A stretch of DNA of 61,438 nucleotides, the filler included, from Dugesia japonica (taxonomy: Eukaryota): the NCBI GenBank assembly GCA_001938525.1. It is 6 parts of 6 records of this genome, joined end to end, with 100 filler letters (N's around TTAATTAATTAA, not from the genome) between each part and the next. Parts side by side here need not be neighbours in the genome. Positions count along the whole stretch, not along the records: positions 50,376 to 61,438 come from MQRL01607343.1; 5 more parts are not named here. The stretch is one strand, 5' to 3'. Under the pieces are notes generated by a model. That model searched no databases. It was not told where the DNA came from and saw nothing but the letters and a program-made list of their open reading frames with translations. The position numbers and the translations under genes were made by a program. Below, piece by piece: positions 21,016 to 61,438 of this stretch (its first letter is position 1; each line of letters begins with the position of its first letter).

Positions 21016-21018
21016 AAT
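20948..21018. repeat. (AAT)n microsatellite
   Basis: Direct reading. Confidence 0.95.
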
Positions 21019-22125: not shown

Positions 22126-22416
22126 TATAAACAAAACTACAGAACCAATAGTTGGAAATCAATGCTTTTGAAAATAAGGAGCGTCTAAAATTATTATCTG
22201 AAAGTAATGATTACGAGTGATCAAAGAATTATGTCAAATGCATAAAAGTAAAATCAATTTTTCCAGTTCATGTCATCATGCTGATAAGGATCAGATTTAA
22301 AGACAATTGAGAACAATTTAAGATTTTTTTCAAATATTCCTGAAAGATTAAATGCATAGATATTGGTTTGAATTATTTTTGGAAGTTGAATTCATACGGA
22401 ATTCTATAATACAATT

Positions 22417-22766
22417 TTATAATTACAATTATTGTGAGAATAATTGTTGGACTTAACCATTGATCGCATTTGAGATTTCATNNNNNNNNNNNNNNNNNNN
22501 NNNNNNNNNNNNNNNNNNNNNNNNNNNNNNNNNNNNNNNNNNNNNNNNNNNNNNNNNNNNNNNNNNNNNNNNNNNNNNNNNNNNNNNNNNNNNNNNNNNN
22601 NNNNNNNNNNNNNNNNNNNNNNNNNNTCAAATTTTATCGAAATTTTATTGGTTAATTTTTTTTATACTTTTAATTTTAAATTTTATTGATTTTAATTTTT
22701 TTTTTTATTTTATTTAAAAATAAAAATTAAAATCATTAAAATTTAGCATTAAAAGTATAAAAAAAA
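22417..22766 (-). mobile_element. Penelope-like terminal repeat copy (gap inside) followed by an AT-rich fold-back
   Basis: Flanks match those of 15385-15620. 22657-22766 is an imperfect inverted repeat. Confidence 0.6.
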
Positions 22767-23966: not shown

Positions 23967-24198
23967 CAGGCCCCGCAAACACAAATGATCCTACAAGCCA
24001 CTATGAAAATGCATTATAATCCCCCGATCACATGTATATATAAAAATTATGGATGAACACAATAAATCATTATTACATTTTATTATTGACATATATATGT
24101 ATCACGATATTCATTACAAGACAAAACAAAAATGATGCACCAATTACACATTTTTTAAATCGTCTTAAATCTCGCGAGCCCCGAATTGGCCAATCCTA
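23967..24198 (-). mobile_element. hAT-like MITE, family shared with 16098-16340
   Basis: Reverse-complement similarity to 16098-16340 at both ends. Confidence 0.6.
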
Positions 24199-25271
24199 GT
24201 AGAATATTTCAATTATTTTATACGGTTATCATTTTTACAATCAAATTACTTTCGAAAATTGAATTTATAAAAGATATTTTGGTTCATAAATTTTGAAAAT
24301 GTACACTTAAAATATTTGATTGTCTGGAATTAAAGTCGTTACTAAAAATAGATTTTATCATCGTAGTATTGGCTATTCATTCATCATGTACTATTGGAAT
24401 AAATTTATATGCCGGTTAATATTTTTTTCAAATTTAACAATCGAATAACAAAAATTTTTAACTTAATATTCATAATTTAATTCTTTCTAAAATCTCAAAT
24501 TACTTTTAATAATTGTAATTACATAATTCAATACATAACAAATTATTACACTGGAAATAAATAAAAGATCATTCAATTGTTATATTCTTACATTACATCA
24601 CATTATTATAGTTTAATATTACTCTGTATTCAATATTGATGGAACATAATTAAATTTACAAGCTTATTTACAAATCATCGTTATATGATAATTTACATGT
24701 TAATTTTTTTAAATCATTAAGTGATGCTTTAAAATAACCCAAGCGTAACTGTTATATTTGAACTCGTAGATAAATTAATCTTAATTAAACATAAAATTAA
24801 GAATTAAAAACAATTAATTTTTTTNNNNNNNNNNNNNNNNNNNNNNNNNNNNNNNNNNNNNNNNNNNNNNNNNNNNNNTATAAAATTTTCAATAAATAAA
24901 CCACCTAGAGACTCATAAATCGAACTCGTTACAAGATCACGGAACTTCGAGATTTGGACGAATTTTATATACTTATAAATGATAACATATGTGACTAAAT
25001 AATATTGGTCTAGAACGTGTGATATCAGAATAAGCGTGTAAAAATATACAAGCCAATGTGGGTTACATTAAAATTTAAATAAATACAAAGTTGTATAATG
25101 TTAATGTTAAATGTAAACAATAAAAATAATTTTGAACAAAAATAGATTTTTTAGAATATGCATATTTCCGGGAAATGTTATCAAAATTAAAAATCATTTT
25201 AATTTTCAAAAATACAAAATAAATAATTGTATTTTACATCAAAATATTNAAAAAAAATTTGATATAAACAA

Positions 25272-25320
25272 GATCAATGGTTAAGTTCAACAATTATTCT
25301 CGCAATAATTGTAATTGCAA
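25272..25320 (+). repeat. Penelope-like terminal fragment
   Basis: gatcaatggttaagttcaacaattattctcgcaataattgtaattg is the reverse complement of the 15390/18626/22420 motif. Confidence 0.65.
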
Positions 25321-25430
25321 AAATCTCAAATAAAACTAATAAAATTAATGAGTTGATGTAAAAGCATATTATATAACAAGAATATCCTTAGATATCACCT
25401 TCCGTTAAATAGCAACAGTTTGTCATTCAA

Positions 25431-26247
25431 TAGTAGCATTTTCCCATTCAATTGTAACATTTTTCGGACACAATATTTATTGATGTACCTAGAGCAATTC
25501 TGACACTCAATTGGTTATATTTCAGACAATAAATGTAAAATATCTTAAGTCATCTTCCGAAGTTATTATTCGGCCTCAGTAATCATTAAATGTACAGTAT
25601 TGTTTCTTCTTCATTTCTTAACCTAGAGTAGATGACATTTTTTAACTTTCAAAAAGCATTTTCTATCGGATTTAGCATTACGAATATGATGATAGAAATT
25701 TTAATTCGTAATTAAATTCAGATACAATTATTTCAATATTAGTTCACCTACGAATTATTGAATTATCCAAAATTAGGCATGCGTTTTTCATATGTTTTAC
25801 ATCTCTTAAAAATATAAACAGTTCTCGAAGGTATTCTAAAAGATATCGCCGTTTACCTTAAAATTGGATATTACAATATATATTGAACTTGTTGATATGC
25901 TGCCTATCATAGTTACCGAGCTTCCTCTTACTGTTGAGTTTCCTCTTTTTCTACTTGATCTCAAATGAGATCTTTTAAAATGTAGATTAGATGATGTTCC
26001 ATCAATAAATATTGCCAAAAAAATATTTTCCAAACCACAGAGCATACTCCTTTTTCAGTAAAACTTTATCTGGAGAATACACACGATCCAACGTTCTGTG
26101 AGGAAGCTTGAATGTAATTCCGAATCCCTCAAGGCTTCCATCAATAGTGGATATTGATATTCATATATATTATTTATAGCAATTTAATTGTTAACAGTTC
26201 AAAATTGTGTCCGAAAAATTTTATAATTGAATAAGAAAATGTTACTA
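25431..26247 (-). mobile_element. Internally deleted IS630/Tc1-type transposon
   Basis: ~44-bp imperfect TIRs (25431-25474 / 26204-26247). Relic motifs IFIDGTSSNLH, RGSSVTMIGSIS, ILDNS and LKFLSSYS*MLNPIENAF. Confidence 0.85.
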
Positions 26248-26364
26248 TAAAGAAATAATAATTTAATAATTTTTATATTAAATTTGTGAATTTTTTGTCC
26301 AAATAATGTTTATATTAAAACATCGATTATTTTTTTTACATAAATTTTTTAAAATAAAACTTAC

Positions 26365-26630
26365 TTGACATGTATTTTCTCTTGGCCATCTTAAAAGAGC
26401 AACATGCTATAAAAATAATTACAAGTAAACTTGTAACAAGAACTACTAAAATAATCAAAATTTTAGGAGGTTCCTTTGTAATTAATCCTGGGAAAATAAT
26501 ATATACTTGCTTCATCATATAATTCAAATCATTGTCATCGGGATAATTACAATGATTAGTATTACAACACCTACTTTCAGATTTATCATTTTTACAGGTA
26601 GGTTCATACCAAATTTCTTTTTTATTACAT
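26365..26630 (-). CDS. TGF-beta/activin type I receptor, exon 2 (cysteine box and transmembrane helix)
   Basis: Acceptor ttttag|A TGT joins GG from exon 1 to give ...MGC. CCNTNHCN Cys box, then hydrophobic ILIILVVLVTSLLVIIFIACCSF followed by basic KMAKRK. Donor A|gtaagt. Confidence 0.92.
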
Positions 26631-26675
26631 CTAAAATTAAAATGAAAACAGTTCAAATTTTAATATCTATTTTAC

Positions 26676-27025
26676 CCCATTCCAAAATGCGGAATTCCAT
26701 CTTTGCTGCCAGCAGAAAGGGAAACTGAACAAGATTCAAACTTCTTAGAAATTTTATCCAAGTTGCAGCAATACATATCCTGACTTATTTTACTAGCAAT
26801 TTGAGATTCCAATGCTAAATTCTTTAGCCTTTGATGAATAGAAAGCATATTTTCCAAATGTTTATGCCATTGCTTACGAGCAATAGATGAAACGTTATTA
26901 CATTTAAAGCAGTTGTCATTATTTTTTTGACCTCCATCAAAACATTGAAAATCAATACATTCTATAAACTTATATCCACTTATAAGATTACAACATACGA
27001 TGAAAAAAAGAAAACATTTATACAT
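26676..27025 (-). CDS. TGF-beta/activin type I receptor, exon 1 (signal peptide and Cys-rich ectodomain)
   Basis: MYKCFLFFIVCCNLISG signal-like start and Cys-rich sequence. Donor GG|gtaaaa. The 45-nt intron 26631-26675 restores the frame with exon 2. Confidence 0.88.
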
Positions 27026-27770: not shown

Positions 27771-28370
27771 TACATAGTATTTATACTTAAAATTTGAGAT
27801 ATTAGAAGAGTAATGGGGTTTTTAATTCAAGACCATCTTACCCATTTTTCCAAATTAAAAATATGTTGATTTGAAATGAGTAAAAAAGATATTGTTCATG
27901 TAAGAGATGAGCTTGAAATGCGAGAACGTGCATTGTATCTTTATTAATAAAGAACAACGTTTTCAACTATAGTTGATCTGGAGATTCGTCGGAGAAGTTA
28001 AATGCCGTATAGGCTTTGCCTGATTGTCAAAAAATGATCTTCCTGAAAAGTTTATTGGTCGTATTGTTGTCAATGACCAACTGGTTTTTATATACGTCTT
28101 CTATTTTCTATATTAGCTGATTTTTTTTGCTGGACATGGCGTAATAAGACTCAATCGCACCTCTTGGCAATTTAGCGTTCTAATAATAAACCTCGAAACC
28201 AATTGTGACAACGACGTTAGAATCGGGTAGCTGGTTAGGAAGCACTTTATTCAAAAATAAATAATATGGAGAGAAAATGAGTTTACAAAAACTCATATTG
28301 ATTAAAGGAAACTCAAATTAACAATTTAAAGGATTTATTCACAAGCATATAGAAGGAAACACATGTGGAC

Positions 28371-28857: not shown

Positions 28858-29094
28858 TTAGCAGTTTACGAAGTTCTCAGTGGATGATGGAGACGGAGAT
28901 GTAGGGAGACGGGTGTCTAACCACTCGCGTGCTCTTAGCAATTCAATGTTAGTATAAACAGCGCTCTGCTTCATCCGCCCTTCACTGATATTCGTGGTTG
29001 ATTGTAGGCGTATTTTGCAGATCTATGAGGATTCCGGCATCTTGTTGGTTGCGGCCATTTAAATCCTCGTAAATTCTCCATTCATAGTTAGACA
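28858..29094 (-). pseudogene. Orphan cassette gene 'B'
   Basis: ctttgtag|TG, then SNYEWRIYEDLNGRNQQDAGILIDLQNTPTI...DEAERCLY*H*. Matches NRDAGILADRSNLPPV...DFGERRSYQNW at 60018. Confidence 0.75.
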
Positions 29095-29249: not shown

Positions 29250-29537
29250 TTATTTAAATAGTAAAGCTTTCGTTCCGCGGATAAGCTTCGATTTCCGCAG
29301 TGTATCATGGTTTTGGAGATGAAGGAGGGTCCATGAAAAGAACATATCCGGGGTTCCAAAAGCGAGAAAAATCTTTCTCAAATCTATCACTTGCTTTTTG
29401 GACTTTTTCTCTATCGGCAATAGGTTGGAGTAGTCCATCATAATACCTACACAAAAATTCATAGGGTTGGTTATGGATTTGTCATTCCCATGTCACTCGT
29501 TTAAGGAGTATAATCTCCAAGTTGTGTTGTTGAACAT
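29250..29537 (-). pseudogene. Orphan cassette gene 'A'
   Basis: catttttag acceptor at 29548. ATG 29537 MFNNTTWRLYSLNE*HG... is in frame with ORF 29250..29462. Pattern CVGI...P...VIDL...G...WTLLHL resembles CIGV...P...VLNI...G...FTLICL at 59490-59660. Confidence 0.55.
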
Positions 29538-29913
29538 GATGATTAAACTAAAAATGAAGTAAAAATGAATACTACGAATGTTGGTTAGTTTATGCAATAT
29601 TCAAAACAATATAGGGGTTTTACGAAATTTGTGATCGCAGTGAATATAATAAATGTAGTAAAAGTGCTGAAGACAGTGGTGCTGAATTAACGGAAATCAT
29701 GCTTATAATGATAATGACTTGGGTGACCACAATGATTTTATTAATTTGGAGATAATTAAAATTGATAGTATCAACTAACATGAGGGGTAGATAATCATAA
29801 AAACACTGAATTTCCTATTAGTGACCGCATTGCTAATCCTGTAGTATTAATGTCGCTAAGAATGAAAATTAGTAGCAACAGTAATAGTGGTAAAGATAAT
29901 AGTAATAATTACT

Positions 29914-30013: not shown

Positions 30014-30279
30014 TTCACCCCAACATATGTATCCTTACATAAGGTGCATGTTATTTTGTAAGTGATATTTTTTTTATTGCATATATTATTTATTTTTTTT
30101 TATTGCATAAAAAAAAATATCACACCAGGTACATGCATGTGTGTATTCATTACGCAATCACTATTATGTAAACAAGATGCTTATGTAATTTCGTCATTAT
30201 TTCAAAAACACTTGGTAATTTTTTAAATATTTTTTTTCAACAATTTTGAGCTAAGTCGCTAGCACACAACGGGTAAGAA

Positions 30280-31830
30280 CCATTGTCAATCTTTGGAATT
30301 CCAGGGATGAGCTGGGCATAAGCATTGATGACCATTAAGATCCCATTGAATTACTTACAGCCAATGATATGTTCATGTTTGTCTAGAGTGGATTCAGAGG
30401 TGGACTTAAATTAGTTAACAAACACTATGTGAAATCGGATGAAGACACTGAGCTTTTTTAAGTCCATATAAATAACTTTTACGGGTGGGAATTAAGACAG
30501 AAATTGTCGTATATGGATTTTCAATGGATTCATAACGGATAAGAGCCAATATTGGACGATTGTAGAAGACTAGATCTAGAGTTATTTTCATATGGGTATA
30601 CAGTAGAAGTTAAAATGAAAATCTCAGACGAGTTGCATGATTATTTAAGTGATTTGCCTGTTGGAGCTGAACTTTAGAGCCCACCAGGAAGTAAGGTAAA
30701 GAAACTGTTATTTACACACAATACCAAACTGAACTATGTAGTGCATTGGCGATTACTACAACTGAACTAGCAACTTGATGTTAGGATTGATAAAATACAT
30801 AGAGCTGTAAAGTTTATAAGAACACTAGATAGCATATTTATACCAATATTATTCTATTAATTATAAATATATTAAGAAATATAGGATCAAACCTTATAAC
30901 GAAAAATATACTTGGATGATAGTGTTATATAAATTTAGCTGCTAAACTCACGCATTGCTGATTTACTTTGGTAAATAATTCCCCAAAGTATATCAACATA
31001 CACAAGATTATATTTTCAAGAAGTATATAGACGTAAATACTGAGCTAAGATCAAAAAGTACATCTGATCTAGAAAAGAATTATTATAAGCATCTAAACAA
31101 TAGCCTCTACGGAAAAACAGTAGAAAATCTAAAGAAACGGATGAATCTCAGATTATGTAATTCAGCTAGGAAGCTCATTACATACGCTTTGAACCCAAGC
31201 TTTAGAAAAATAGTTAAAATAGACCAGGATTTAATTGCGATATTGGTGAATAAGTATACGGTTTGTGTCAATCGTCCTAGCTACATTGGTCAGACAGTGT
31301 TCGACTTGAGTAAGTTAAGAATGTATTAGCTACAATACATAGAGCTTGTAAAATATCGGAAAGAGGTAAAATGTACCATTAATATTGTGGCGGGAGATAC
31401 TGATAGCTTTTTCCTGGAAATGAAAGACATTAGATTGGAAAGATTACTAGAATTGATGATTCAGGAAGAGTTGTTGTGCACTTCAAATTATAGTGCAGAA
31501 CATCCACTTTATAACAACTTGAACTCAGTGTTAGGCTAAATTTAAAGACGAAAGAAAGGGTAAGAAATACAAGGAATAGGTTTTTATGATACCAAAATGT
31601 TACAGTCTCTTCAGCGAAAAGACTAGCATGACGGCTTAAGGGATAACAGTAAAAGATCCCGACTTAACATACCAGTTGTATCTAGATTGTTACAAAAACA
31701 ATCAACTGGTCTCAGTAAACCAATTTAGAATAAGTACAAGAAACCACCAATTGTACAGCATTGACCATCAATGACGATAATAGAGTATGGATACACGAAA
31801 ACACCGGTATTCCATACTGACATTGTAAAT
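30280..31830 (+). pseudogene. Polinton/Maverick protein-primed family B DNA polymerase (polymerase domain), decayed, with an insertion at ~30820-31015
   Basis: Motifs PGMSW, SGFRGG, INNFYGWELRQKL, GYTVEV...LHDYLSDLP, KIHRAVKF, YKHLNNSLYGKTVEN, PSYIGQTVFDLSKLRMY and GDTDS; many stops and frameshifts. Confidence 0.88.
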
Positions 31831-32329
31831 CGACCGCAATAAATAAGATTTCGGATCAACAACAGAATGTACAAGTAATTAATTCATCTTAACTTATTAT
31901 AAATCTATTTTATTATTCAGTAATCAGATGAAGAAGCCAATCAATCGCATGAAGAAACCTATCAAACTGATCGTAATCGAACTGTTTATATTGAACTGAC
32001 TTTGTTAAACTATTTGTAATTTTATGTAAAAAGTGTTTCACTGTGATTTGTATTTTTATGTATTGGTAATATTGTCTGGGAATATCTAATGTTAATCTTA
32101 ATATTCTTTGGGGGCAAATTGAACTTGAACATTAGTTATTTTAACTTAATTTTAACAAAAATAATTAATTTTGCACACACAAAAAATACGAGCAAAAGTT
32201 ATATAATTTCATTGTTCCCGCTAAATACATGTAAAATTAATACACCATTATTACATAATCATATGCACACATTTTATCTATTTTTATCGATCCACTAAAT
32301 ACACGTACAATTCATACACCTCTAAAAGG

Positions 32330-33954: not shown

Positions 33955-36787
33955 TTTGTTTAATATTACAAATAGTTGATTCAAACAAATCATATTTGTG
34001 ACGCAACACTGCCCCCTGCCAGAATTATGGAGTAATTTCAATATGATCGATTGCTGGCTTCAGGCGTTCTACAGAAACATTTTTATCTTCACCATTGATC
34101 TTTATTTTGAAGATTTTCATATCTGCACTTGGGTTGATTACTTCCGATGGCCCATCATATGGGTAATGTAAACTTCTCGGATTTTCACTTCTTAACCACA
34201 CTTGTTTGCAGTCGTATTATTCAATAGGAAGGAAAGTCTTGCATCTCGGTCTCGGTCGATTTTGATTATCGTTAATTTCTATTTCTTTTTCAACTTCTTC
34301 TGGTGATAGTTCGTCAAAATGAATGTTGATTTTCAGGTCACTTGGAATCTAGATCGTTTAACCAAACACCATATGCGCTGGTAAAACTTCATTATCTAAA
34401 AAGGTTGAATGTCCTAATGCCAGCATTACTTTTGGAAGGTCTTTGCACCATGCAGTGCGCTCTGAGTGCATTTTCAGGGATCTGTGAAATCACTCATTTT
34501 TTCCATTACATTGTGGATGAAATGCCGCGTAGTCCTGTGATCAATACTATTTTTATTAAATATTTCTTGAAATGATGATGAGATAAATTCCTTATCTTGA
34601 TCTGTGATAAGTATGTCGGGACTACCGAATCTGCTGAGCCATTCTCTTTTTAAAGCCGCCATAACTTTTTTAGTTGTTATCTCAGCCAAAGACACTGCTT
34701 CCCTCCACGTAGTGTGCATGTCGATTATAGTCAATAAATATTTTTTACCCATTACATTTGGCAAAGGACCAACAATGTCAACGTGTAGGATTTTAAATCT
34801 TTCCAGATTTGGTAGTGATCCTAAAGTGTCTAGATATTTCGGCTTTTTGGCATTTAAGACATTCTCTTGTCCATCTTGGCCATACATATCATTGTTTGAT
34901 CATCTTTATAGAGTTATTAGCCCCACAGTGCGAGAAGTTGTGTATTCTTTTGAATTTTTCAAATCTGAAGCAACTTGGCAATATTATTCTTTCTAGACCA
35001 TTAGAAACATCAACGATAACATGATTAGCGAAAATTTCTGTTTTAAGTCTTGAATCGATCTGTCGTATTTTTGTACATCAATTAAACGTTCTTTGGAAAG
35101 TTGCAAAATTTTGTGTTCATTTTCATCTTCCGTTATTCTTGACAAAAAATCTGCGACTACATTATCGCTGTCTTTCAGGTTTCGTATTTCAAGTTAGAAT
35201 TGATTGATGTATTCGATCCACCGTTATTGTTTGTTTGATGGATCTTTCATTATTTTCATGTACGTTATTGGTTTTTGGTCTGTGCACAATTCGCACAGAT
35301 TGCCTTCTATTAAATGTTTGAATTGTTTGGTTGCTAGATATATTGCTAAAAGTTCACGATCAAATGTGACATACTTATGTTCTGTCTTGTTCAATTTGTT
35401 TTGAAAAGAATGAGATTGGCTGTAACTTACCGTTGCTGTACATGATTGAGACTGGCTCCAGTGTTGGATGCATCGGTACATAAAAATATTTTTTTGTGAG
35501 TATCGGGAGGTATCATCGTTTTTATCTGATGTAAGTTAGATTTAGCGCTTTGAAATGACATTTCTTGAATTTCTGTCCACTTGAACATTTTTTTATTTTT
35601 GCTGGCTCTAGCAACTAAATCATGTAAAGGAGCTAAAATATCCGATAAATTTTGGATCATTCATATATAGAATGTTAATGTCCCAATAAATCGTTTGAGA
35701 ATTTTTACATTCTGTGGTGTCCGCAAACTTATTATATTCGTTATATTCTCCGGAATTAGTTGAATATCTTTGCTTGAGATTTGAAAACCAAGGAATGTTA
35801 TCCATGATTGATAGTACACACATCTTTCATTGTTGATTCTTAGTTTGGCATTCGTGAGCGTTTCTAAAACCAGTTTTAAATGCTTCTCGTGTTCTTTATC
35901 TGATTTTGAAAAAATCCGGATTTCATCAATGTATGCTATTGCGTAATCTCCGTGATGATTCATCAATTGATACATGTATCTTTGAAAAGTTTTAGATGCA
36001 TTTTTTAAGACAAATGGCATATTTAGGTACTCGTTAAGCTCAAACGGTGTGATTGCTTGATGATGAGGAATTGCTTGATGTTCAGAGCATGCAAAGAACA
36101 ATTACGGGAGAAGATATTTTTAAATGTGTTGAAAAAAGTATACACCAGAACCGCTCTACTAATGGTGGTAAAAACAAGTGTTGACAAAATAAAGGGCTGG
36201 TTGGTTGATTAATAAAAAAAATTATGGCTGCTCAAAACCACTAGTTTTACGTTGCATTATTCATCAACATGGTTTATACGGAAATATTTGGATATGTCAA
36301 AATTATTGAATCCTGTCATATCCAGCGTTAACTTTATTTGATTGCACGTATTAATATTTTTTCTGTATTCAAAGTGTGATTTTTTTATGTTGCTGCATTG
36401 AGTAGTCGATGATCTTCACATGGACGACAATAGTTATCTTTCTTTTTGACTACTACTATTGGTGAAGCCCATTTACTCATACTTAGATTTATCACACCTT
36501 GGCATAGAAGCGTATCAAATTCCGTTTTTACTGCTTTGAGAAGATTTCCAGAAATCTGTCTAGCACGTTGAGCTGCAGGAAATCGAGAAATGACAATATG
36601 TAGTTGAGTTGGCGATGTAGATATTGTTTCGTCATTATTTTCTGTTAGATTTCTGAGTTCCATCATTGTGCGAGTTCCTTGTGCTATTTGTCCTCTTCTT
36701 TGAATTTGATTTTTGTTGCAATGAACAGTGATTTATTACAAGTAGTAATATTATATGATTCAAACAAATCATATTTGTGACACAACA
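33955..36787 (-). mobile_element. Ty3/Gypsy LTR retrotransposon relic (RT, RNase H, integrase; gag deleted)
   Basis: WASPIVVVKKKD, MPFVLKNA, AYIDEI, TDAS, DRELLAI, TDQKPI, HVDIVGPLP, RFGSPDILITDQ and a GPY/F-like tail. Polypurine tract 34009-34022 precedes LTR start TGTTGCGTCAC (34008). A matching 5' LTR start TGTTGTGTCAC is at 36787. The distal end of the 3' LTR was not resolved. Confidence 0.92.
36062..36350 (+). mobile_element. hAT (SPIN/GTF2IRD2-like) transposase fragment embedded in the Gypsy RT
   Basis: EELLDVQSMQRTITGEDIFKCVEK...TNGGKN...KGLVG...CIIHQ...VNFI; no TIRs seen. Confidence 0.75.
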
Positions 36788-41165: not shown

Positions 41166-42063
41166 TTTTTATGAATATTAAAAATCTTACAAAATATATT
41201 TATACTTTATATATAAAACAATTAAAATTTAATTGAGGTTGAGGAATTTATCATTGATTTTAAATTTATAATATTTCAGAAAAATTAATAGATTGAATCG
41301 ATCTTAATTTCTATTCGATGAATTTTTAAAACTCAATAAAATAAATAATATAAAGAAATTCTNNNNNNNNNNNNNNNNNNNNNNNNNNNNNNTTCATAGT
41401 AAACTTTCTCATTGTGAAAATCCATATAATTTCAGAAATCTTCAAATTTTAATTCTTTCTCATAATAAATTAAATACCAAGAAATTAATAACAAGTTTTT
41501 ACAACATCGATTAATCTATCTATTAACATGTCAACAACATATTACACATGCTTTTACAAGTTCCAACAAAAGTCATTACANNNNNNNNNNNNNNNNNNNN
41601 NNNNNNNNNNNNNNNNNNNNNNNNNNNNNNTTTTTATGAATATTAAAAATCTTACAAAATATATTTATACTTTATATATAAAACAATTAAAATCAAAATT
41701 ATGCAATATATTTAATTGAGGTTGAGGAATTTATCATTGATTTTAAATTTATAATATTTCAGTAAAATTAATAGATTGAATCGATCTTAATTTCTATTCG
41801 ATGAATTTTTAAAACTCAATAAAATAAATAATATAAAGAAATTCTATTTATGATTTCATGGAAATATAAATAATATTCATAGTAAACTTTTTCATTGTGA
41901 AAATCCATATAATTTCAGAGGTCTTCAAATTTTAATTCTTTCTCATAAAAAATTAAATACCAAGAAATTAATAACAAGTTTTTACAACTTCGATTAATCT
42001 ATCTATTAACATGTCAACAACATATTACACATGCTTTTACAAGTTCCAACAAAAGTCATTACA
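41166..42063. repeat. ~430-bp direct duplication across a gap (41166-41580 / 41631-42063)
   Basis: Near-identical copies differing by a short indel and a few SNPs; probably two haplotypes assembled in tandem. Confidence 0.85.
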
Positions 42064-50375: not shown

Positions 50376-50453
50376 GACGACATCGCGGCTTTTAACTTCA
50401 TTGTCACTACCCCGGACCAATGGCTAGATCCGGAGGCGCTAGATTTGCTTTAA
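50376..50453 (+). CDS. 3' end of an orphan gene 'Z' paralog (cut by the contig start)
   Basis: DDIAAFNFIVTTPDQWLDPEALDLL* versus DDVATFNFTVTDPNQWLDPGALDLL* at the end of 61033-61415. AATAAA follows. Confidence 0.8.
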   Translation, partial: DDIAAFNFIVTTPDQWLDPEALDLL

Positions 50454-51532
50454 TTGTATTAATGTCAAATAAATATTTTCATTAGGATTGTAACGAATTT
50501 AATTTTCTTAAATAATATTAGGGAAGTATATAGAACCCGAACTAAAGGTTTACTGGTGTGTACCCCCATTAAGTGAGAGGTCAACCGCAGTAAACTGAAA
50601 ACCTACCACAGGGACGGTAGGGTAAATTCTTGGAAGGGTTCCCCTGGGGGCTGTTTTTTCCCCGGCCATTTTTCCAATTCAGGTGGGACCCCAACAAATA
50701 TATAATTCCTATAACTAAATTAAGTTGAAAATTCATAATTTGTTTTATACATTTATACTTAAAAATGAAAGCCACCGTGTTACCCCATTTAGTGTGCGCG
50801 CGCACATAAGTAGAAATCATAAAAATTGATAAAAAAAAAGCAAACATTTTGTATTTTTTCCTCTTATTTTGTTCATTCGTCTATAATGCGCTTCATTATA
50901 GAGTCCTCGGTAAGAGCTTCGTTTCTTATTGCTCTCAGGAACTGACACATCCCGACTTGCTACGTATTAATGATTTAAAGATTTTAAGACGCGTCAATAC
51001 TTTTAGACCATTTTGTGTTATTAATTATTACTTTAACGAAATCAATATAATAGTTTAAATTTTAAATTATATTTCACGAAATATTTAAGTACTTTAAACT
51101 AATTATTCTAGTTTAGTTCAATAAACAAAATTCCTTCTCATAAACAAAAACAATATCATGTGATCTATGAAATCAAAACGTAACAGCATAATTTTATAAA
51201 CGGAAATTAATATTTTCAAGTAAATTCATGTTAACCTCAAAGTTTCTGATACTCATTGAATACACCAAGCACAATATTATCACTTGTATTTCAGTAATAG
51301 AAAGTTCAATCACCAAACATTAATGCTTAAGGTATCATTAATCTTCATCTCTTTACCATATATTACTTTATTTCGTTCATTGTCTCATTACACAAAACTT
51401 GAACCCATATTCATCTCTTCATTATCTTAAACATCAGCATCTTTAACCGTAAACTTTTATCATCGTTATCATCAAATCTCTTTTATCATAATCATCTTAT
51501 CAATATTCTACTTATGCAGTGCATAAATTCAT

Positions 51533-51628
51533 AAGGGATGATCTGGTGCATTGGATATCTATGTTGTGATGATCGTTACCACCAACAAGGCCAGTGATGA
51601 CGACCATCACCTCAGTTTTCCGTTTTAA
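51533..51628. repeat. Segment 'W', homologous to 10130-10225
   Basis: See 10130-10225. Confidence 0.65.
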
Positions 51629-52593
51629 TAAAATTATTATTTATTTATTTTTTTTATGATAATTTTATAAATAAATGAAAATATTTAATAATAAATGCTG
51701 CTTAAAAGTTCATTTTAATCTTTCTTTTTCTCTCATCAATGTAATTTTATTTTTAATACATGGATACTTTCAACACATTTATACAAATTATAAATAATAA
51801 TAAATATTCCTTGTTTTATTGANNNNNNNNNNNNNNNNNNNNNNNNNNNNNNNNNNNNNNNNNNNNNNNNNNNNNNNNNNNNNNNNNNNNNNNNNNNNNN
51901 NNNNNNNNNNNNNNNNNNNNNNNNNNNNNNNNNNNNNNNNNNNNNNNNNNNNNNNNNNNNNNNNNNNNNNNNNNNNNNNNNNNNNNNNNNNNNNNNNNNN
52001 NNNNNNNNNNNNNNNNNNNNNNNNNNNNNNNNNNNNNNNNNNNNNNNNNNNNNNNNNNNNNNNNNNNNNNNNNNNNNNNTATTTATTTTTTTATTCATTT
52101 TCTTATTACTCTTTAATTTATTTCCTTCTATAATTTTCATATTTTACGAAAGGTTGTTTTAGCATTACAAATAAGTCCGTAGGATAAGTAAGAAAAAAAC
52201 AAAATTTTGACAAAATTTGATTTTATTATTCAACCTAGTTGCCTTTGAGGGTGATACAACGAGTATAGCAATTTTCCCACTTTTCGATACCACTTTTATA
52301 GTACGATTTCTCTTTTTCGTATGTATGTGTGTTGTATTTATTTATAAAAAAATTCATAGTCACGGGATTTTCGGTGTATGTGTGTTGCATCTGAGTTGCA
52401 TACCTATTGCATTTTTTGAAAAAATCAATAAAAATTCTCAGGCATGTGACTTTCAGTGTATGTATTTTGCAGGAGTTGCATCTGACTTCCATTTATTAAT
52501 AAAAATTTCCTAGGCATGTGATTTCTAGTGTGTTTTTTAACTTTCAATGATAAACAATATACTAAATTATTAGTAAATTAAAGAAAAAACAAG

Positions 52594-53213
52594 ATGGAGA
52601 TAAAAAAAATGATGCAGTCTATATAATTGTTGGACCTAGTGGTAGTGGGAAAACTGTGTTTTTAAGTCAATTATTGAAATCAAAGTTATTCAAGTCAAAA
52701 TTTAAAAACATATACTGGCATAGGGGCGCAGATGAGGAGCATGGATTGACTAAATCTGAATTTTGAAATATTAAAATGAAAATCATAAATGGTTTTGATT
52801 CCAATTGGAGCAAAAGATTAAGACCAGGTGATGTTATTGTTGTTCATGATCTGTATCAGGAGGCAAACAAAGAAAACGATTTCAATAATTTTCACAAAGA
52901 TATCGAGACATCGTAATGTGACTGTGATATTTATAACTCAAAATCTATTTCATAAAGGAGGAAGTCATAGAACCCGTAATTTAAACGTGCAATATTTGGT
53001 TCTATTCAAAAATCCTAGAGATCAAACTGTTTTTTGATTTTCTAGCAAGACAAGCATATCCAAAAAACATAAATTTTCTTATTGAATCATTTCAAGATGC
53101 AACAGAAAAACTACATGGATATCTATTTCTTGACTTTACACCAGATGATTGTAGGATATATAACTGATATTATCAACCCTAATGGTATCACAGTATATAA
53201 AAAAAATAGATAA
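52594..53213 (+). pseudogene. A32/FtsK-like packaging ATPase
   Basis: Walker A GPSGSGKT, Walker B-like VIVVHDL, SRHRNVTVIFITQNLF, NVQYLVLFKNPRD and HGYLFLDF; frameshifted. Confidence 0.9.
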
Positions 53214-53507
53214 TGTTTTATAATATTATATAAAATGGCAAAGTTTAAGAAAATTGAAGTTGATTCAGTTACTGATGGTAATATTGTTAAACACCGGAAA
53301 AGGCTGGTTTTGAAGAAAAAGACGAAACAATCTTATAAGAAAAAATTCCATAAGAAACAAGCTCATAAGAAAACGTATGCAAATAAGAAAAACAATTGAA
53401 TAAATTTAAAACACTTGCAAAAAGTATTGAAAAAACTGTAATTGATGAATGGAAAATGGATATCATTATAAACAATTAACTAGTATGTTTTTGTCTTTGA
53501 AATAAAA

Positions 53508-53825
53508 ATGAAATTAGAAAAAAGTATTCCGTTTTTTACTGCTTTGATTAAATCATCAAAATCAATGAGAATGAAAATTTTGGAATCATTTCTAACGCAT
53601 ATTATGGATGATTTACTTGAGATTATTGTAAATATTGTTCGTAGTGATATATATTTGAGCGAAGCTAAAAAGGAAACATTGAAAAAACATATAAAAACCT
53701 TACTATCGCTTGTAAATACAAAAAATAGGAAATTGATGAGGAAAATATTACGAGATAATCAAGGTGGTGGTTTTATAGCAGCATTACTTCCAATTGCGGC
53801 ATTAGGCTTAAGTAATTTCAAATAA
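53508..53825 (+). CDS. Polinton small basic protein with an adenovirus pX-like C-terminus
   Basis: Intact 105-aa ORF ending QGGGFIAALLPIAALG, resembling the GG|F-amphipathic tail of adenoviral pX. Confidence 0.65.
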   Translation: MKLEKSIPFFTALIKSSKSMRMKILESFLTHIMDDLLEIIVNIVRSDIYLSEAKKETLKKHIKTLLSLVNTKNRKLMRKILRDNQGGGFIAALLPIAALGLSNFK

Positions 53826-53910
53826 ACAATAGTCACTTTTTGCCAATATATAAATAAACAATGGGCGGATTGCAATCATTACCTAATTTTGACTTAAAAT
53901 TTACATTGTA

Positions 53911-54955
53911 ATGGGGAAACTAAAGACAATATGGACGGATCCTAAAAACCCAGTAGGTTTTCGAGGCGGAAAAATGTTGCTGAACGCATCTCAAAAAAAG
54001 AAAAAGACAAAAAAGTGGTTATCTGGACAACTAGCGTGCAGCCAAAACAAGCCGATGTTGAAAAGATTTCCAGCAATAGCATATGAAACATGGTATTGAT
54101 GATTTATTGCAAATAGAACTAATGGAGATGATTCCATATTCAAAAATTAATGAAAGATACAAGTATATTTTGACATATATTGATGTATTCTGTAGATTTG
54201 CAAGAGCTTCTTCTGTTAAATCAAAATCTGATAATGATATGGAACCAGCAATCAAGTCAATGTTTAGAAATGGACATCCAGATAATTTACAAAAGAATTT
54301 GGGTAAGGAATTTTACAATTTCAAGGTGAAGCAACTTATAAATCATCTATCCATAAACCATTACAGTGTATTCTCTCAGTATAAAGTTGTACATGTAGAG
54401 ATATTTATCGCACATTGAGAGATGCATTGAAAAAGTACTTTGTACATGTTGATAATAAGACTTGGATAAATGTTTTACCGAAACTTATTCATAGCTATAA
54501 TCATTCTAATCATAAGGGATTAAATGGAGTAAGACCGGTTGATGTAAGTACAAACAATCAATTAAAGTTATGGTTATCGCGAAAACATTCAAAAGCAAAT
54601 AAAAAACCAAAGTATAAAGTNNNNNNNNNNNNNNNNNNNNNNNNNNNNNNNNNNNNNNNNNNNNNNNNNNNNNNNNNNNNNNNNNNNNNNNNNNNNNNNN
54701 NNNAAATAACAAAAATCAACATGAAACAAAATCCGGTCATGTATGTTATTAAAGATTATGAAGATAATATCGTGCAAGAAAAATTCTATGAGCAAGAATT
54801 ACAAGTCATTCCACCACTAGATGAAAAATTCTATGAGCAAGAATTACAAGTCATTCCACCACTAGAGATATATAGAATAGAAACAATAATTAAATCAAAA
54901 GGATCAGGAAAGAATTAACAATACTATGTAAAGTGGCATGGAAACGAAAAATGAA
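53911..54955 (+). pseudogene. Polinton rve-type integrase with C-terminal chromodomain
   Basis: DPKNPVGFRG, YKYILTYIDVF, PDNLQKNLGKEFYN, WINVLPKLIHSYNHSNH, FYEQELQ and YRIETIIK...YYVKWHG; frameshifts and altered catalytic residues. Confidence 0.92.
54778..54867 (+). repeat. 45-bp in-frame tandem duplication in the integrase
   Basis: EKFYEQELQVIPPL(D/E) occurs twice. Confidence 0.95.
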
Positions 54956-55000
54956 GTTGAATATTAGCATCACAAATAGTCAATCAACAAGAAAATTCAG

Positions 55001-55983
55001 ATGAAATCGAGTAATTTCTGTCCAATTATTCATCCCGAGAGTAATGCTAGTAAATTCATTGTTGAGCTACAAAATTTTATTTATATGGATGGTAGTTGGG
55101 AAGTTGCCATGATGGCAACTTCCTATCTATATTCACCATTTCTGGTATATAGCAAGTCGAAAATTGAATACATGACTGCAAAAAATATATTGAATGAAAT
55201 AACTGTAGCAATAAATAACAAGGAAAAAACACAGTATTGATCAAAATAAAAATTCTGAAATATTTGAAAATTATCTCATAAGATTTTATTGTGATTTTCC
55301 ATATGTTGTCATATTTGATTATGCAAATATCGCACACTCATTTGGATTAGGATGTAAATCTAACAAATTAACAAAAAAGTTCGGTCATATCTATACAAAC
55401 TTTACAAATGATGACACTGTACAAAAATTAAAAATTAAAGTGGCTTATACAATGGGGAATTATTATACTTTTCAGTTTAAAGACGATATATACATATCAG
55501 AACTGGAACAATTAAATAAATATTTGACTGAAAATTGTAGTCAAATATTTAAGAAATGTCTTATAAGTGCAGATAAATATTTTGAATTCGAAGTAAAAGA
55601 TGATGTAAAAAAAGTTGTATTTGATAATGTTTTGACAAAAACATTGGGATTAGACAAACAACAATATTCTCCTGCGGATATGAAGGGAGGTGAGTTCAAA
55701 GCTATTACCAAATCGAAAATAATGAAATTACATCAGCAAATGTTCATCTATAGTAGTCTTGTTGAACCTATAACTGTAGGAGATGTTAGTGTATTGAAAG
55801 CAGTATGAATAGAAAAGCTTGAAACTGATGAAGTAGTACAAATAATAGTTGATAATCCAATGTATTTACCCATTGCAACATCATTTATAAACAATATAGA
55901 AATTAATATATGCGATGATAACGGAAAATTAATCAAGTTTCCAAAACATTCAAAAACTCATTTAAATTTTAGAAAACCAAATA
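55001..55983 (+). pseudogene. Polinton minor capsid (penton-like) protein
   Basis: NASKFIVELQNFIYMDGSWEVAM at the N-terminus. MFIYSSLVEPITVGD...PMYLPI...IEINICDDNGKLIKF at the C-terminus. Confidence 0.82.
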
Positions 55984-56430
55984 ATGAATCCTGATATTTT
56001 TTCATTGTATAGTACCAGTCAAGCAGGTGGAGAATTACCTTACTTTTTTGGAAAACAGTATGGATCTGGTTGATTGAGAACAATAGGTAGATTTGCTGTA
56101 CCGATTCTTAAACGTATTGGTTCTTTTGGTATGAAAACAGCTCAGGATGTACTACCTAATGACGGAAAAATATTGCCCACATTGAAATCAAATGCATTAA
56201 CTGAACTTGGAAATGTTATGTCATCATTACCTAGCGGAGTAACCAGTATGATTCGAAAAGTAGCAAACATATTACCGCAAAGTATAATTAATAAAATACC
56301 ATCTAAAATAACTAATATGCTATCAAATCAAGTCACAACACCACAAAATAGTAGAAAATGTAAGAAATCTCATGGATCATGTATAAACAAACGAATAAGA
56401 GGCCATGGAACCATATTTGAAAAACTGAAT
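55984..56430 (+). pseudogene. Polinton PW-like (core/membrane-active) protein
   Basis: MNPDIFSLYSTSQAGGELPYFFGKQYGSG*LRTIGRFAVPILKRIG: QxGG and QxGxG motifs, an amphipathic helix and a basic tail. Confidence 0.7.
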
Positions 56431-56710
56431 TATGTATTTTTCATCAACCATCTCCCAAAGCTGTAATTGAAAGTGGTACTTTCGAAGATGTCTTTCCTAT
56501 GAATTCAATTTTTGAATCACAAAGAGACGTAGAGTTTTTTATAAATGGATCTCAAACAGAATATTTGGATTTGAATGATACTTTATTGTATATTAACGTG
56601 AATGGGGCTGGTAAAGATTTGACTGACACTCATGATGCAGTTTCTAGTAATTATATGCTTTTTAAGGATGTAATTCTTTCGTTTAATAATTTCAAAAATG
56701 AAAGTGGAAA
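56431..56710 (+). pseudogene. Polinton major capsid protein, N-terminal fragment
   Basis: FEDVFP...VEFFINGSQTEYLDLNDTLLYINV...LFKDVILSFN. Similarity stops near 56710. Confidence 0.8.
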
Positions 56711-57410
56711 ACTCCTTCTTTTGCCTGTGTTCTTCATTTTCAGGGGTACCTAATCGCTGGTTTAATTTTAATCTCAAGTGTTTCACCCCAACACTCGTAT
56801 AGAATATATTGAAGGTTATGTAACCTTCATCATACAACGATAATATATCTTTGAAAATCTTCAGTAATCTCAAGCAATTGTTGATTTGTTTTTGTGAATA
56901 ATCTCAATAGCATCTCAACAAATTAATTTATACTGTTTTTTAACCAACAGCAATACATACTATATTCATAATAAAATATTAAATGAACCCTATTTTTATT
57001 ATTTTCCATAATATTTGAATTTTTTAATAAATCATTATTTTCTATACTTATTGGAAAATAATGTTTTTGCTTATCTTAAAATAATAATTGATTTAACTGG
57101 TTTCGATTTTTACTTAAATTTTTCTTTTTTTAAATTTTTAATCTTAATATCACCAAGCCAACAATCTCATAATAGACCAACGTTTTGTAAACTGTTTTGG
57201 TGTCTGAACTTTTAGGGAAAAAAAGTCTATTGAAACATTTTCACAAGCAAAGATCAAATATTATGTTCTTCTATTTTCATAGATTGTTCAATATTTTAGC
57301 TATTTCAGGAACTATTATTGAATTAATTCTGGTCACAAATTTCAAAAAAAAACACAATTCATCTGAAAAAATCTAATTTTCATTGGTTAACATAAGATTT
57401 ATTGAACATA

Positions 57411-57440
57411 CAGTACTCGTAAAAAGTCTGTTCACCCCCT
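57411..57440 (+). mobile_element. Solo Tc1-like TIR
   Basis: TA-CAGTACTCGTAAAAAGTCTGTTCACCCCCT resembles Tc1-family ends. No partner TIR found. Confidence 0.45.
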
Positions 57441-59489
57441 ATAAAAATGCAACTTTTAATAAACATTTCGATTTAGTTTAAACTAATTGTTTAAATATTT
57501 AGTTACTGATAAACTATTTAAATAATGTAAGTTATTATAATTTATTTTTAATTGATATGTGTATTTGGTGAAACACCCGGTCAAGGAGGAATATAGATCT
57601 TAAATAACAAGTTTCAAAAAAAAGGGGAAAAGAATAATACCATAGTAACATTAAGAACAAGTACCAAAATCGGACCGGGTGGTAAATCAATAATCAAAGA
57701 AACAACATAAGAAAAGTAGATAACTATGAACTTCGATAATCAAACCAACATCCAGCAATCAAAGAAAATTACTAAATTATTAATTAATGGAGCTGGAAAA
57801 TTAATAACCAGAACAATTAATTAAAGAAGATATTAATTAATTTGGAGTTTAAAAAATAATTAAAATTAAGCGAAAATTCATTTATCCCAAATTACTTTGC
57901 CCCAGAAAATCACAGCAGCTCGGACTAAGAAAATTTGAGAAGAATTTAGGGAAGGCCATCAAAATTTTAAAATAAAAAAATCTTACCATCATCCAAGAAG
58001 ATTCTACAGGATTCCGAAGAAAGAACCAATGAGCAACCTAAAAAAATAAATGAAACAAAGGCATTATTGTCATGTGCCATTCCATAAATAGGCACCAATA
58101 GAATGCAAAAAAATCTGAGAGAAACTTTGAAAATTGGCATCAACGCCAATAGAAACGGATTAATTCAAACTAAAAATAACCGGCCAACAAGAACACAGTT
58201 GGGGTGCAACTAAAATCCTATATAAGCCACGGAAATTTTAGTGGATTCATCACAAAAAAAATATCACAACAAAACCAACCTTCAAAGTTAAAAAAAATTT
58301 TATCAACTAATTCTTGTTACGGAGAAGTGAAATCAAAACAAACTATTAATTTTATCTATCGTCAGACGAAACGAAGAAATTTTTTAACCACTTTCAAGTA
58401 TTGAGGGATCTATTTGTTAATTACTGAGTCAATTTTGTAGTACGGAAAGATCGTGAAATTAATCGCAAATTAATTCAAAGGTGGAAGCTGTCAGAATCGG
58501 TAGCGAAATTCATCATCTTCAACCAGGAATTGTCTATATTCACCCAGTTGCAGAATTTATCTTAATTGACTAGTAAGTAAAGTGGTTGTAATTTTTGTTT
58601 TCTTGTATAAATTAGAAATGAAATAAATTTTACAATATTAAATTAATAAATATTTATGTTCAATCCTGTTTAGNAGATATTTAATATGATAATTATAATA
58701 ACTAACCAGAAAGAAAATATCGTTCCCTCAATTAAATATATCAAGTCTGAACCGCATTTTTTATTATTTTTCTTGCAGACGACACACCATAGAAATAATA
58801 ATTCACATAGTCCCCGTGAATAAATTAATACGGGAATTTAGCAGTTGTCAGAGAATCTGGCATAAAAAATTCCGATTTGTGGGAGAATGTCTAATTAATC
58901 ACATATACCGTTTGAACATAGATCACCATCAATTGCACGTTACACATTGAGTTGGTTGTTAGCAATAATCGCAAAGCCAAATTTAGGCAGACCACCATGG
59001 GTATAATCCACCTTGATTAGTGTCACTACATACTGTACTTGGTTTGCGTGTATTTAAGTCAGTGTTAACATGCATTACTCGCAGTGATCAGAGATGAAGA
59101 AATTTTTTTTGTAACCAAAAAACCAAGCTTGGCGGTAATTTAAGCCTGAAAACTTTGCGATAAATAAATCCGAATAAACTATTACGTAGCATTTCTCCTA
59201 CTAATTTTATACATCTGAATTTTATTTAATAAATGAAAGTCTTTATTATCAATGAGGTTAAGTGATCTACTAACAATAATAAGATTATCATAATTATGCA
59301 TTCACTATTTATAAATTTCATGTTTATTTGATAATGATTAATAACTTATTATTATTGATATTACTGGATTCTGATTTACGTCCGTGTAAAAAACATATTA
59401 TCGAGCAGTTATGCACCAACCTGGTAAGGAAAATGTTTCCATCAAAATTCTTGTAACAACGAATCTTGTAAAATTTTTGTAAATTTCCT

Positions 59490-59668
59490 TATGACCACTT
59501 TCCATCGTGGTTATCCGGAAAGACCTGGTTATGTATAGGGGTAATTACTAATGGTCGTTATTATCAACCGTAATCTGATACCAGTCCCGTCTTGAACATT
59601 GATCAATGGATGGCCATGTCTGGTCAATTAACATCGTATCAATTTACGTTAATTTGCCTAAAGTTTAA
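59490..59668 (+). pseudogene. Orphan cassette gene 'A'
   Basis: YDHFPSWLSGKTWLCIGVITNGRYYQP*SDTSPVLNIDQWMAMSGQLTSYQFTLICLKF. Patterned similarity to, and same cassette position as, 29250-29537. Confidence 0.5.
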
Positions 59669-59675
59669 TATTTAG

Positions 59676-59861
59676 ATTATGCCCACGGAACTAGGAAATA
59701 TGTTCAGATTAATCCGGAAACAACGCAAGACCGTCAGATTGAGACAGCTAGTGTCAAGGGGTAAAATAGAGAATCCAGACGACACGGATTTAGCTTGCTT
59801 CGTGGAGATGTTCCCCTCAGTGACTTCAGTGGATATTGATGCGGGAAGTATGCCTTGTTAA
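59676..59861 (+). CDS. Orphan cassette gene 'D' (frame uncertain)
   Basis: tttag|att ATG; 60-aa ORF, GC-richer than its flanks. Confidence 0.45.
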   Translation: MMPTELGNMFRLIRKQRKTVRLRQLVSRGKIENPDDTDLACFVEMFPSVTSVDIDAGSMPC

Positions 59862-60017
59862 GCAAGAGTGCAATCCGTCAATCGCTGTTAATTGTTTAAA
59901 ATAAACTTGCGAGTTAAATGATTATATTTGTTGCTTATTCTACTTCCATTAATTAATTTTAAAAAAAGAAAAATTATATATATCTTTATTTAAACCAAAT
60001 TTCGGTCTTTTTATAGA

Positions 60018-60365
60018 ATGGAATCTATATGGGAACGTATACTCNATCGGAGGACTCGTCGCGTGATTTTCCGGCGACATCATAACTCCTACAATCGTGA
60101 CGCGGGGATCTTGGCCGACAGGTCTAATCTGCCCCCGGTGGAGACCATCCTAGCTCGAATACAAGATTTCGGGGAGCGACGTAGCTATCAAAATTGGACA
60201 GGGCCTGATCGGACCCTTGTTAACACTTTCCAGTACCAACCATAAGCTCCGGCCCCCGCCGTGCAGGCATTCATCAATAATTTACTCTGGGGGGTAAGAG
60301 AACCCTTGGGCAGCAAGGATTCAGAGAATTCGACGCCCGCAACTGACTCCGCAACTACTCATTAG
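60018..60365 (+). pseudogene. Orphan cassette gene 'B'
   Basis: ttatag|a ATG. The DAGIL motif and downstream blocks are shared with 28858-29094. The frame continues past a TAA as APAPAVQAFINN. Confidence 0.75.
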
Positions 60366-60547
60366 AAGTTTAATAGTTTTTTCTTTAAGTCATAATAAAT
60401 AACTTGTTGTCTTCAGATTGTTCTCATCATATTTCTTTTGATTTCGAAATTAACTTTAGGGGCAAGTTGTAAATGTACTATGATAATATCGATCATAGAG
60501 ATGGCTGTTAGCTTTATAATGTTTGATTGATTTTAAAATTCGTTTAG

Positions 60548-60906
60548 TGCATTCATCGCTAAATCGTTCGACGGTCCCTACTAAATCGACGAGGGAATCC
60601 AGTGAGGACATACAGCTTACTTGGGACCTATATCAACTGGCAAAACGTCGATGGGAGGCCAAAATAGCCGCCGCCAACAGTATGGTGTCTCGCTATAGGA
60701 AGAAATGTGTCGCTTTCAAAAAGGAAGCCTAGGCCTCCCACTTACAGGAACGAACATGGAAGAAACAAATTGAATCTTTTTCAGAGATTATCCGGTTCAG
60801 CCATGACTGAGAAAATAAACTGGTTAACGATGTCTTACTTTTCCAGGAGAAAATACTGCTCAGTTCTTTGATGATAGAGAAGGATACCCAAACCCATCGG
60901 ACTTAG
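60548..60906 (+). pseudogene. Orphan cassette gene 'C' (coiled-coil)
   Basis: tttag|TG start. EDIQLTWDLYQLAKRRWEAKIA...ESFSEII...NKLVN...TQT. Two internal stops. Confidence 0.8.
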
Positions 60907-61032
60907 CTCGTTTAAATAATTTTTTTTTTTAAAAATGTATTGTACGATCTTGCTTACGAATTTAATTATTCCTCCTAATTTTACTTAAATCCTGTCGTCA
61001 TGTTACGTATGTACTAATTTAATTTCTTTTAG

Positions 61033-61415
61033 TGCCTCACATCAAGTTTCCCACTAGTCTCCGCAGATGTCACCGTATAATGCGTCGCCGGTTGATCGAG
61101 CGCCATTTAAAACGAAAAACAGATAGAGCTCTCATCAAGCATCTGAATCAACGAGATAGTCTCATAAAGAAACTTGATAACATAGTAAAGAAACAGAGTT
61201 ATTTAGCAGCCCAAACCAAGGCCTTGGAAACTGAAAATAAACAACTGTTGCAAAGGAAAATAGATTTCCTAAAGCAATGCATAGCTGACCTTTCCCGCCA
61301 GATTGGCGATCCAACTTGTGTCCAATGGGACGACAACGACGATGTCGCCACCTTTAATTTTACAGTAACGGATCCAAATCAGTGGTTAGATCCAGGAGCT
61401 TTGGATTTGCTGTAA
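61033..61415 (+). CDS. Orphan cassette gene 'Z' (basic N-terminus, coiled coil, acidic WLDP tail), intact frame
   Basis: tactaat branch-point-like motif plus tttcttttag|TG. 127-codon open frame with AATAAA after the stop. Paralog at 50376. Confidence 0.8.
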
Positions 61416-61438
61416 TTGTTTTATAAAATAAAATGTGC

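Follow-up and report, generated by a model that had tools for sequence, protein, structure and literature searches.

The stretch of DNA analysed here (hereafter the window) is 61,438 nt long and comes from a fragmented Dugesia japonica assembly, GCA_001938525.1, with a GC content of about 27%. A/T above 70% is given for one planarian in PMC11410931. The window comprises six contigs with an N44-12bp-N44 spacer at each join: contig 1 (1-10436), contig 2 (10537-18875), contig 3 (18976-29913), contig 4 (30014-41054), contig 5 (41155-50275) and contig 6 (50376-61438). Near the end of contig 6, which also holds a decayed Polinton-like core, four short open reading frames (ORFs) designated D, B, C and Z lie in tandem on the (+) strand. 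The ORFs of this cassette are GC-rich (37-52%) and are separated by AT-rich spacers of 126-182 nt. Gene D (59676-59861) is a 60-aa ORF whose ATG lies 3 nt past an acceptor-like AG and whose stop is followed 42 nt later by AATAAA; no homolog of D was found in the island-pair test within the window. Gene B (60017-60365; GC 52%) starts at AG|AATG and has one premature stop. Genes C (60548-60906), with two premature stops, and Z (61033-61415), whose frame is open to a stop with AATAAA beyond it, both start at an in-frame AG|TG. A further gene A, placed at 59490-59640 (+) by the first-pass annotation, is doubtful and falls in the lowest read-depth class.

A second copy lies on the (−) strand of contig 3, and consists of a GC-richer island with an acceptor-like start (A2, 29258-29547), a probable homolog of B with an AG|TG start (B2, 28858-29094), a homolog of C that begins at an in-frame AG|TG and carries stops and a frameshift (C2, 28371-28719), and a frameshifted homolog of Z that starts at AG|TG and has AATAAA past its end (Z2, 27963-28244). 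About 0.9 kb downstream of Z2 is the start of a TGF-beta type I receptor gene (19413-27025, −). This receptor is highly divergent, with 43-56% identity to the best 120 of the 446 matches listed, and judging from its sequence the host is an animal. Elsewhere in the window there is a decayed Gypsy-type reverse transcriptase, RNase H and integrase (34474-36732, −), a DUF4817 helix-turn-helix ORF (11186-11767, −) that we take to be a probable fragment of a Tc1/mariner-type transposase, and a tandem duplication of about 430 nt with 88% identity (41166-42063), which flanks a masked stretch and may be an assembly artefact.

C and Z form a conserved module

We compared 210 pairs of islands with 60 local shuffles for each. 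Five pairs stood out (Z/Z', z 25; C/C2, z 22; F/F2, z 12; Z/Z2, z 11; E/E2, z 7), and the next-best pairs, at z of 5.5 or less, joined unrelated islands and mark the noise level. Gene C (60544-60894, +) aligned with 28723-28380 (−) in two blocks of 37% and 46% amino acid identity (E 3e-12 and 9e-7), and none of 60 shuffles was as good for protein or for DNA (z 14). The N-terminus of Z was found downstream of C2, at 28216-28118 (E 4e-4), and its C-terminus recurs as Z', a third copy of 26 codons cut by the start of contig 6 (50376-50453, +; 77% amino acid identity over these codons, E 5e-10). The spacer between C and Z is 126 nt in both copies, and the gene order C-Z is conserved in these two diverged copies. 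By sequence comparison, the conserved module is C-Z on two contigs, with Z at three loci.

The first-pass annotation had claimed a larger module, with homologs of A, B and C in the same order on the minus strand. The alignment of C was borne out and its order with Z holds; B has statistically weak support, and A is not confirmed. B and B2 have in common their position and a DAGIL motif, and the statistics of their match lie within noise (z 3.1, with 1 of 60 shuffles as good; E 0.8; for DNA, 173 and 883 of 1000 shuffles as good). The reading frame assigned to B2 depends on this weak match. B2 is probably homologous to B, and the conserved module is probably B-C-Z rather than C-Z alone. A had no significant homology to A2 or to the A-like segment of contig 1 (A1), the best case being A1 against A and D together (2 of 200 shuffles as good for DNA, 27 of 200 for protein), and A2 matched neither A nor D significantly. 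An A-like gene to the left of the ATPase was not accepted either, as 29 of 300 shuffles did as well.

A third variant of the cassette had been proposed on contig 1, and this did not survive the same comparison: neither its A-like nor its C-like gene is significant, the latter lying within noise against C (z 2.9). These genes look like a separate set, E and F (7780-9545, −), each gene having a second copy, on contig 1 for E (1-229, −) and on contig 2 for F (13561-13653, +). That of E aligns at 229-62 and that of F at 13561-13653, and F has a clean four-heptad leucine repeat. The style of this set is like that of B-C-Z, with no sequence link between the two.

The divergence between copies is consistent with coding constraint followed by decay. 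Third codon positions diverge most: of 204 pooled codons, 110 agree at position 1, 144 at position 2 and 78 at position 3 (p 2e-8), a pattern favoured by the choice of the compared blocks for protein similarity. For C we estimated dN/dS at about 0.29 with dS near saturation. The earlier statement that the copies are far more similar as protein than as DNA is not literally correct (40-43% amino acid against 53% nucleotide identity), and the constraint that it was meant to convey does receive support from the codon positions. Every copy now carries stops, frameshifts or contig cuts, with the exception of the open frame of Z on contig 6.

ORF starts resemble splice acceptors

Five of the six starts of B, C and Z in the two copies are an in-frame AG|TG (C at 60548, Z at 61033, B2 at 29094, C2 at 28719 and Z2 at 28244); the exception is B, with AG|AATG. 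At these five starts the ORF frame opens two bases past the AG, and the tract upstream is 60-80% pyrimidine. At the level of motifs, an acceptor-like AG preceded by 60-85% pyrimidine stands at the start of D, B, C, Z, A2, B2, C2 and Z2. In D, B, E and E2 an ATG follows 0-3 nt past such an AG, and at the start of F the upstream tract is only 50-55% pyrimidine. An in-frame AGTG is found in 2.2% of AT-rich 40-mers, which gives a chance of about 5e-4 for C and Z alone, a figure for a pattern recognised post hoc. C2 and Z2 have not kept the Met that comes first in frame in C and in Z, and the homology reaches upstream of this residue. AATAAA follows 8 of 11 ORF ends against a background of 25% (p 0.001, with homologous ends not independent); AT-rich spacers often contain both this signal and acceptor-like AGs by chance. 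The acceptor-like starts are new in this analysis and had no place in the earlier reading.

A poly(A) signal followed by an acceptor, in spacers of 126-182 nt, is also what would be seen in an operon resolved by trans-splicing of the host's spliced-leader (SL) RNA to each acceptor. This spacing is within the 300-nt limit given for flatworm operons in PMC12582326. The same paper describes a flatworm SL that ends in AUG, and an AUG joined at AG|TG would not share the frame of C, Z, B2, C2 or Z2; an SL-resolved operon is improbable.

The segments all begin at acceptor-like sites and share one phase, as would the exons of a single host gene, or of a lineage-specific host family, that had been duplicated and pseudogenised. 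Against such an origin, the terminal stops of C and C2 and of Z and Z' are at matching positions, AATAAA lies behind them and no donor precedes them. Since the stops match and no donor comes before them, the C and Z segments appear to be separate terminal units, not internal exons. The GC content at third codon positions (GC3) of the cassette is also well above that of two host exons (0.25 and 0.27), the copies seen are all broken or cut, and RNA is near zero in two runs. We consider a host-gene origin very improbable.

Our preferred reading, to which we give a probability of roughly 0.55, is that the row D, B, C, Z is a decayed and repeated transcription unit of a mobile virus-like element, whose ORFs served as leader-spliced alternative ends. 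Splicing would join a common leader exon, lying upstream, to any one of the acceptors; each acceptor would open a single ORF, and the RNA would end at the poly(A) signal belonging to that ORF. The leader would supply the first base of the first codon, presumably an A that completes an ATG. An A-completed ATG best accounts for the TG itself having been kept across saturated synonymous divergence. In variants of the model, a very small coding exon with a phase-1 end would take the place of the leader A, or initiation would be at GTG. The last of these also counts against the model, as a conserved GTG start codon would leave identical letters. A candidate leader donor was found at 59411-59429 (+), with a strong GTAAG at 59424 and an ATG 13 nt upstream in a phase that fits the acceptors (5.6% by chance per 300 nt). 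A second candidate, A|GTAAGT (58572-58578, +), has its donor at 58573 and A as the last exon base. Both may be chance occurrences, and there is no strong donor in the 366 nt upstream of copy 2.

Predicted products

The model of Z is an 84-residue helix with a basic N-terminal half and an acidic C-terminal tail, which is conserved and modelled at low confidence; C was modelled, also at low confidence, as three helices. Both models were built from single sequences (pTM 0.44 for Z and 0.35 for C), and a homodimer prediction for Z scored an uninformative 0.01. The net charge of Z is +15 in the N-terminal half and −8 over the last 35 residues, and the acidic tail is its best-conserved part. Going by these models, Z would be coiled-coil regulator-like, with a long helix and an acidic aromatic activation-type tail, and the products are probably small, helical, basic, nuclear accessory proteins. 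For Z, C and F no bZIP family matched at E of 0.1 or below, generic coiled-coil matches below the cut-off being the only hits.

Pfam searches with B, C, D, E, F and Z gave nothing above the cut-off, and Rfam gave 0 matches. We searched the large collections with Z and C. Z had no relative in a word search of 5.8 billion proteins or in a protein atlas, metagenome contigs or viral contigs; its sole match among PDB sequences was one designed repeat protein, and a fold search of viral and PDB structures returned 0 matches at E of 0.001 or below. C had no relative by phmmer among 1.84 billion representatives, nor among PDB sequences. The first-pass remark that none of these proteins was recognised agrees with these searches, which are a weak test: core ORFs of 197 and 104 aa, taken as controls, were equally blank. 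Because these controls were blank too and the host kinase itself reaches at most 56% identity among the 120 of 446 matches listed, such searches cannot prove novelty. 'Orphan' accordingly denotes absence from collections lacking this lineage, a status that is weakly tested.

Relationship to the Polinton-like core

The decayed core on contig 6 (52221-56750, +) encodes an A32-type ATPase, an rve integrase with a chromo-like tail and further packed ORFs. The ATPase matched Pox_A32 at E 1.1e-4 (22.2 bits against a cut-off of 22.8), with Walker A at 52581-52934, and the integrase matched rve at E 7.6e-4, under the curated cut-off, with E 5e-3 for the tail. Some of the other ORFs are candidates for the jelly-roll major and minor capsid proteins, by motifs and gene order; these candidates had no Pfam, protein-collection or usable atlas match. 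A cysteine protease was not seen in the core. A decayed protein-primed DNA polymerase (pPolB; DNA_pol_B_2, E 1.5e-7) is present on contig 4 only (30270-31900, +; GC3 0.35), with none on contig 6 and no link to the contig-6 core. A further decayed pPolB, suspected behind F2 on contig 2, was not accepted (4 of 100 DNA shuffles as good; no protein or Pfam match).

Several repeats accompany the core. Just upstream of the ATPase are three 37-nt repeats, 82 and 72 nt apart (52348-52538), which lie in one of the highest-depth bins, occur in many unit variants in the reads and are possibly Polinton sub-terminal or promoter repeats. An exact 44-nt tandem duplication lies in the C-terminal region of the integrase (54778-54866). 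A decayed, basic ORF-like stretch (57500-58450, +) lies between the capsid-like fragment and the cassette, and had no Pfam match in six frames. Block R (51270-51640) is homologous to 9690-10250, with 0 of 200-300 shuffles as good; it is ATC-rich and about 400-550 nt long, and on contig 6 it lies upstream of the ATPase, on contig 1 upstream of the E and F genes.

To assess repetitiveness we mapped DNA run X1 on 50376-61438 at 80% likeness, with summed depth read as a class only and not as copy number. Depth was 194-306 in the three bins before D and 1,085, 2,291, 3,158, 35,382 and 9,261 in the five cassette bins from D to Z. The cassette is a repeated element that is present in DNA runs. At 52221 depth steps from 2,571 to 373,690, and 11 of the 12 core bins exceed 59,000, the other (55173-55541) being at 4,500. 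The first bin of contig 6 is also high (113,984), owing to W and not to Z', since depth is 1,481 at 50497, 16,399 at 50523 and 57,612 at 50647.

W (50520-50710) is a GC-rich segment of very high read depth with short imperfect complementary ends. Homologs of Z and W had been placed just upstream of the ATPase by the first-pass annotation; for Z this is correct (Z'), and for W no homolog was found within the window by alignment and shuffle tests. The ends of W pair in the centroid fold, and the fold is no better than those of shuffles (z 0.22). We rejected W as a gene or structured element; it is likely a short, non-coding, high-copy repeat separate from the cassette, possibly a MITE-like insertion.

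These results bear on the earlier proposal that makes the cassette an accessory module of the Polinton represented on contig 6 by its core. In favour of the proposal, the core has a cassette copy on either side, both in one orientation, and Z' precedes the ATPase by about 2.2 kb; block R recurs directly upstream of the contig-1 genes; and unassigned accessory ORFs are known in adintoviruses (PMC8502044, section 3.2). Other features separate the cassette from the core. Across 10 cassette-type segments GC3 spans 0.33-0.60, those on contig 6 falling at 0.43-0.60; the four in-frame core ORFs of that contig, with the ATPase left out, have values of 0.19-0.25. Cassette and core are also unlike in the layout of their genes. 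Depth is 1e3-3.5e4 in the cassette against more than 5.9e4 in nearly all core bins beyond the step, although low depth does not exclude membership, as one core bin is also low. A search for terminal inverted repeats (TIRs) inside contig 6, and between it and the pPolB flank, found none; a TIR between the ATPase and pPolB flanks was discarded, with 272 of 300 and 227 of 300 shuffles as good. W is no common gene, between the capsid-like fragment and D lie 2.9 kb of unrelated DNA, and copy 2 has no adjoining Polinton gene and has the host receptor gene less than 1 kb downstream. Proximity is also cheap, given that Polinton pieces occur on two of the six contigs. What stands of the proposal is a core on the same contig, and we regard membership in that core as doubtful.

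Depth that rises from D to Z would be expected from 5' truncation, a feature that would suit accessory ORFs of a giant LTR retroelement, of Burro or similar type, or of an element resembling complex retroviruses such as foamy-type ERVs, with splicing from the main donor of the element. Gypsy ORFs in the window have a GC3 of 0.31-0.34, closer to the cassette than the core is, and in planarians Burro-type elements carry accessory ORFs and number thousands of copies (PMC6431247). Set against this, no gag/pol, LTR or direct terminal repeat was found beside any copy, an absence of limited reach on contigs of 8-11 kb for elements of more than 30 kb, and the sole Gypsy pol lies elsewhere, on contig 4. 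A full-length RNA intermediate would also be hard to reconcile with poly(A) signals behind nearly all ORFs. An LTR parent of this kind is unlikely.

For the transcription unit that we favour, the likeliest single parent is some Polinton lineage distinct from the neighbouring AT-rich core, at appreciably less than even odds; a giant LTR element and an element not yet described share most of the remaining probability. In about a quarter of each of two RNA runs (X11 and X14), per-strand depth on the cassette did not exceed 1.1, compared with as much as 77 on the ATPase bin. None of 15 listed splice joints, of 481 in these runs, was in the cassette, where reads were too few, and RNA runs were absent among the holders listed by a sequencing-run search.

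Implications and comparison with known systems

A fuller and more tentative reading, which we think has well under an even chance, is that of an undescribed virus-like element or Polinton arm in which orphan regulators of coiled-coil type would be expressed from alternative terminal exons, gain their start codon only through splicing and be switched on together by one leader. If so, the ORFs would be start-less in DNA and missed by standard ORF finders, and a class of accessory genes would be overlooked where giant elements, Polintons among them, are annotated from their ATGs. Should the splicing model hold, this would be a high-copy invertebrate mobile element with an adenovirus-like transcription unit; should it fail, the cassette would be an unannotated decayed repeat with real ORFs. 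The model makes exact predictions, of junction positions and poly(A) sites, that are testable in RNA from piRNA-pathway knockdowns. Polintons and LTR elements are de-repressed in such planarian knockdowns, according to PMC8532177.

We found no description of the cassette or of spliced Polinton accessory units in the literature, with Repbase and paper supplements outside the comparison, and the accessible portions of PMC10748475 and PMC11410931 held nothing on the cassette. It resembles adintovirus/Polinton Oncoid and Adintoc in being small uncharacterised ORFs near a pPolB/rve/FtsK-type element in an animal genome (PMC8502044), and unlike Oncoid it does not lie upstream of a pPolB here. There is no LxCxE in the three sense frames of the contig-6 cassette; the copy-2 frames have two, one spanning a stop and one out of Z's frame, and CxxC occurs outside ORF frames only. 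The main text of PMC8502044 has no word starting with 'splic'. The cassette could belong to an Adintoc-type class. With Burro and the rotifer Terminons it shares the character of a high-copy invertebrate element with accessory ORFs, coiled-coil ones in Terminons (PMC6431247), and it differs from them in having no RT, LTR or Rfam ribozyme match beside it. Flatworm SL operons are alike in spacing, but their SL would bring its AUG into the wrong frame at each of the five AG|TG starts.

The closest parallels in organisation are viral. Adenovirus pTP and Pol take their start from a small upstream exon. According to PMC11304566, pTP and Pol have 5' exons in common and a different terminal exon, and the adenovirus late unit is described in PMC7070027 as having more than 20 splice sites and five poly(A) sites. 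The cassette is like the major late unit and E2B pTP/Pol in the predicted joining of common 5' exons to alternative terminal exons and in its several poly(A) sites; unlike adenovirus, with which it has no sequence homology, it has a poly(A) signal at nearly every ORF and AT-rich spacers, and it is endogenous and decayed. Adomavirus late ORFs have an acceptor immediately upstream and a three-exon leader (10.1101/341131), and LO4-LO7 of the marbled eel adomavirus are likewise tandem ORFs with an acceptor directly upstream of each and a common leader. There, each ORF has its own ATG, the products are virion proteins and splicing is shown by RNA-seq, whereas C and Z have no conserved ATG, their proteins had no match in the collections searched and their splicing is predicted. 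By this analogy, the cassette is predicted to work like the leader-spliced units of adomaviruses and adenoviruses while being a member of neither.
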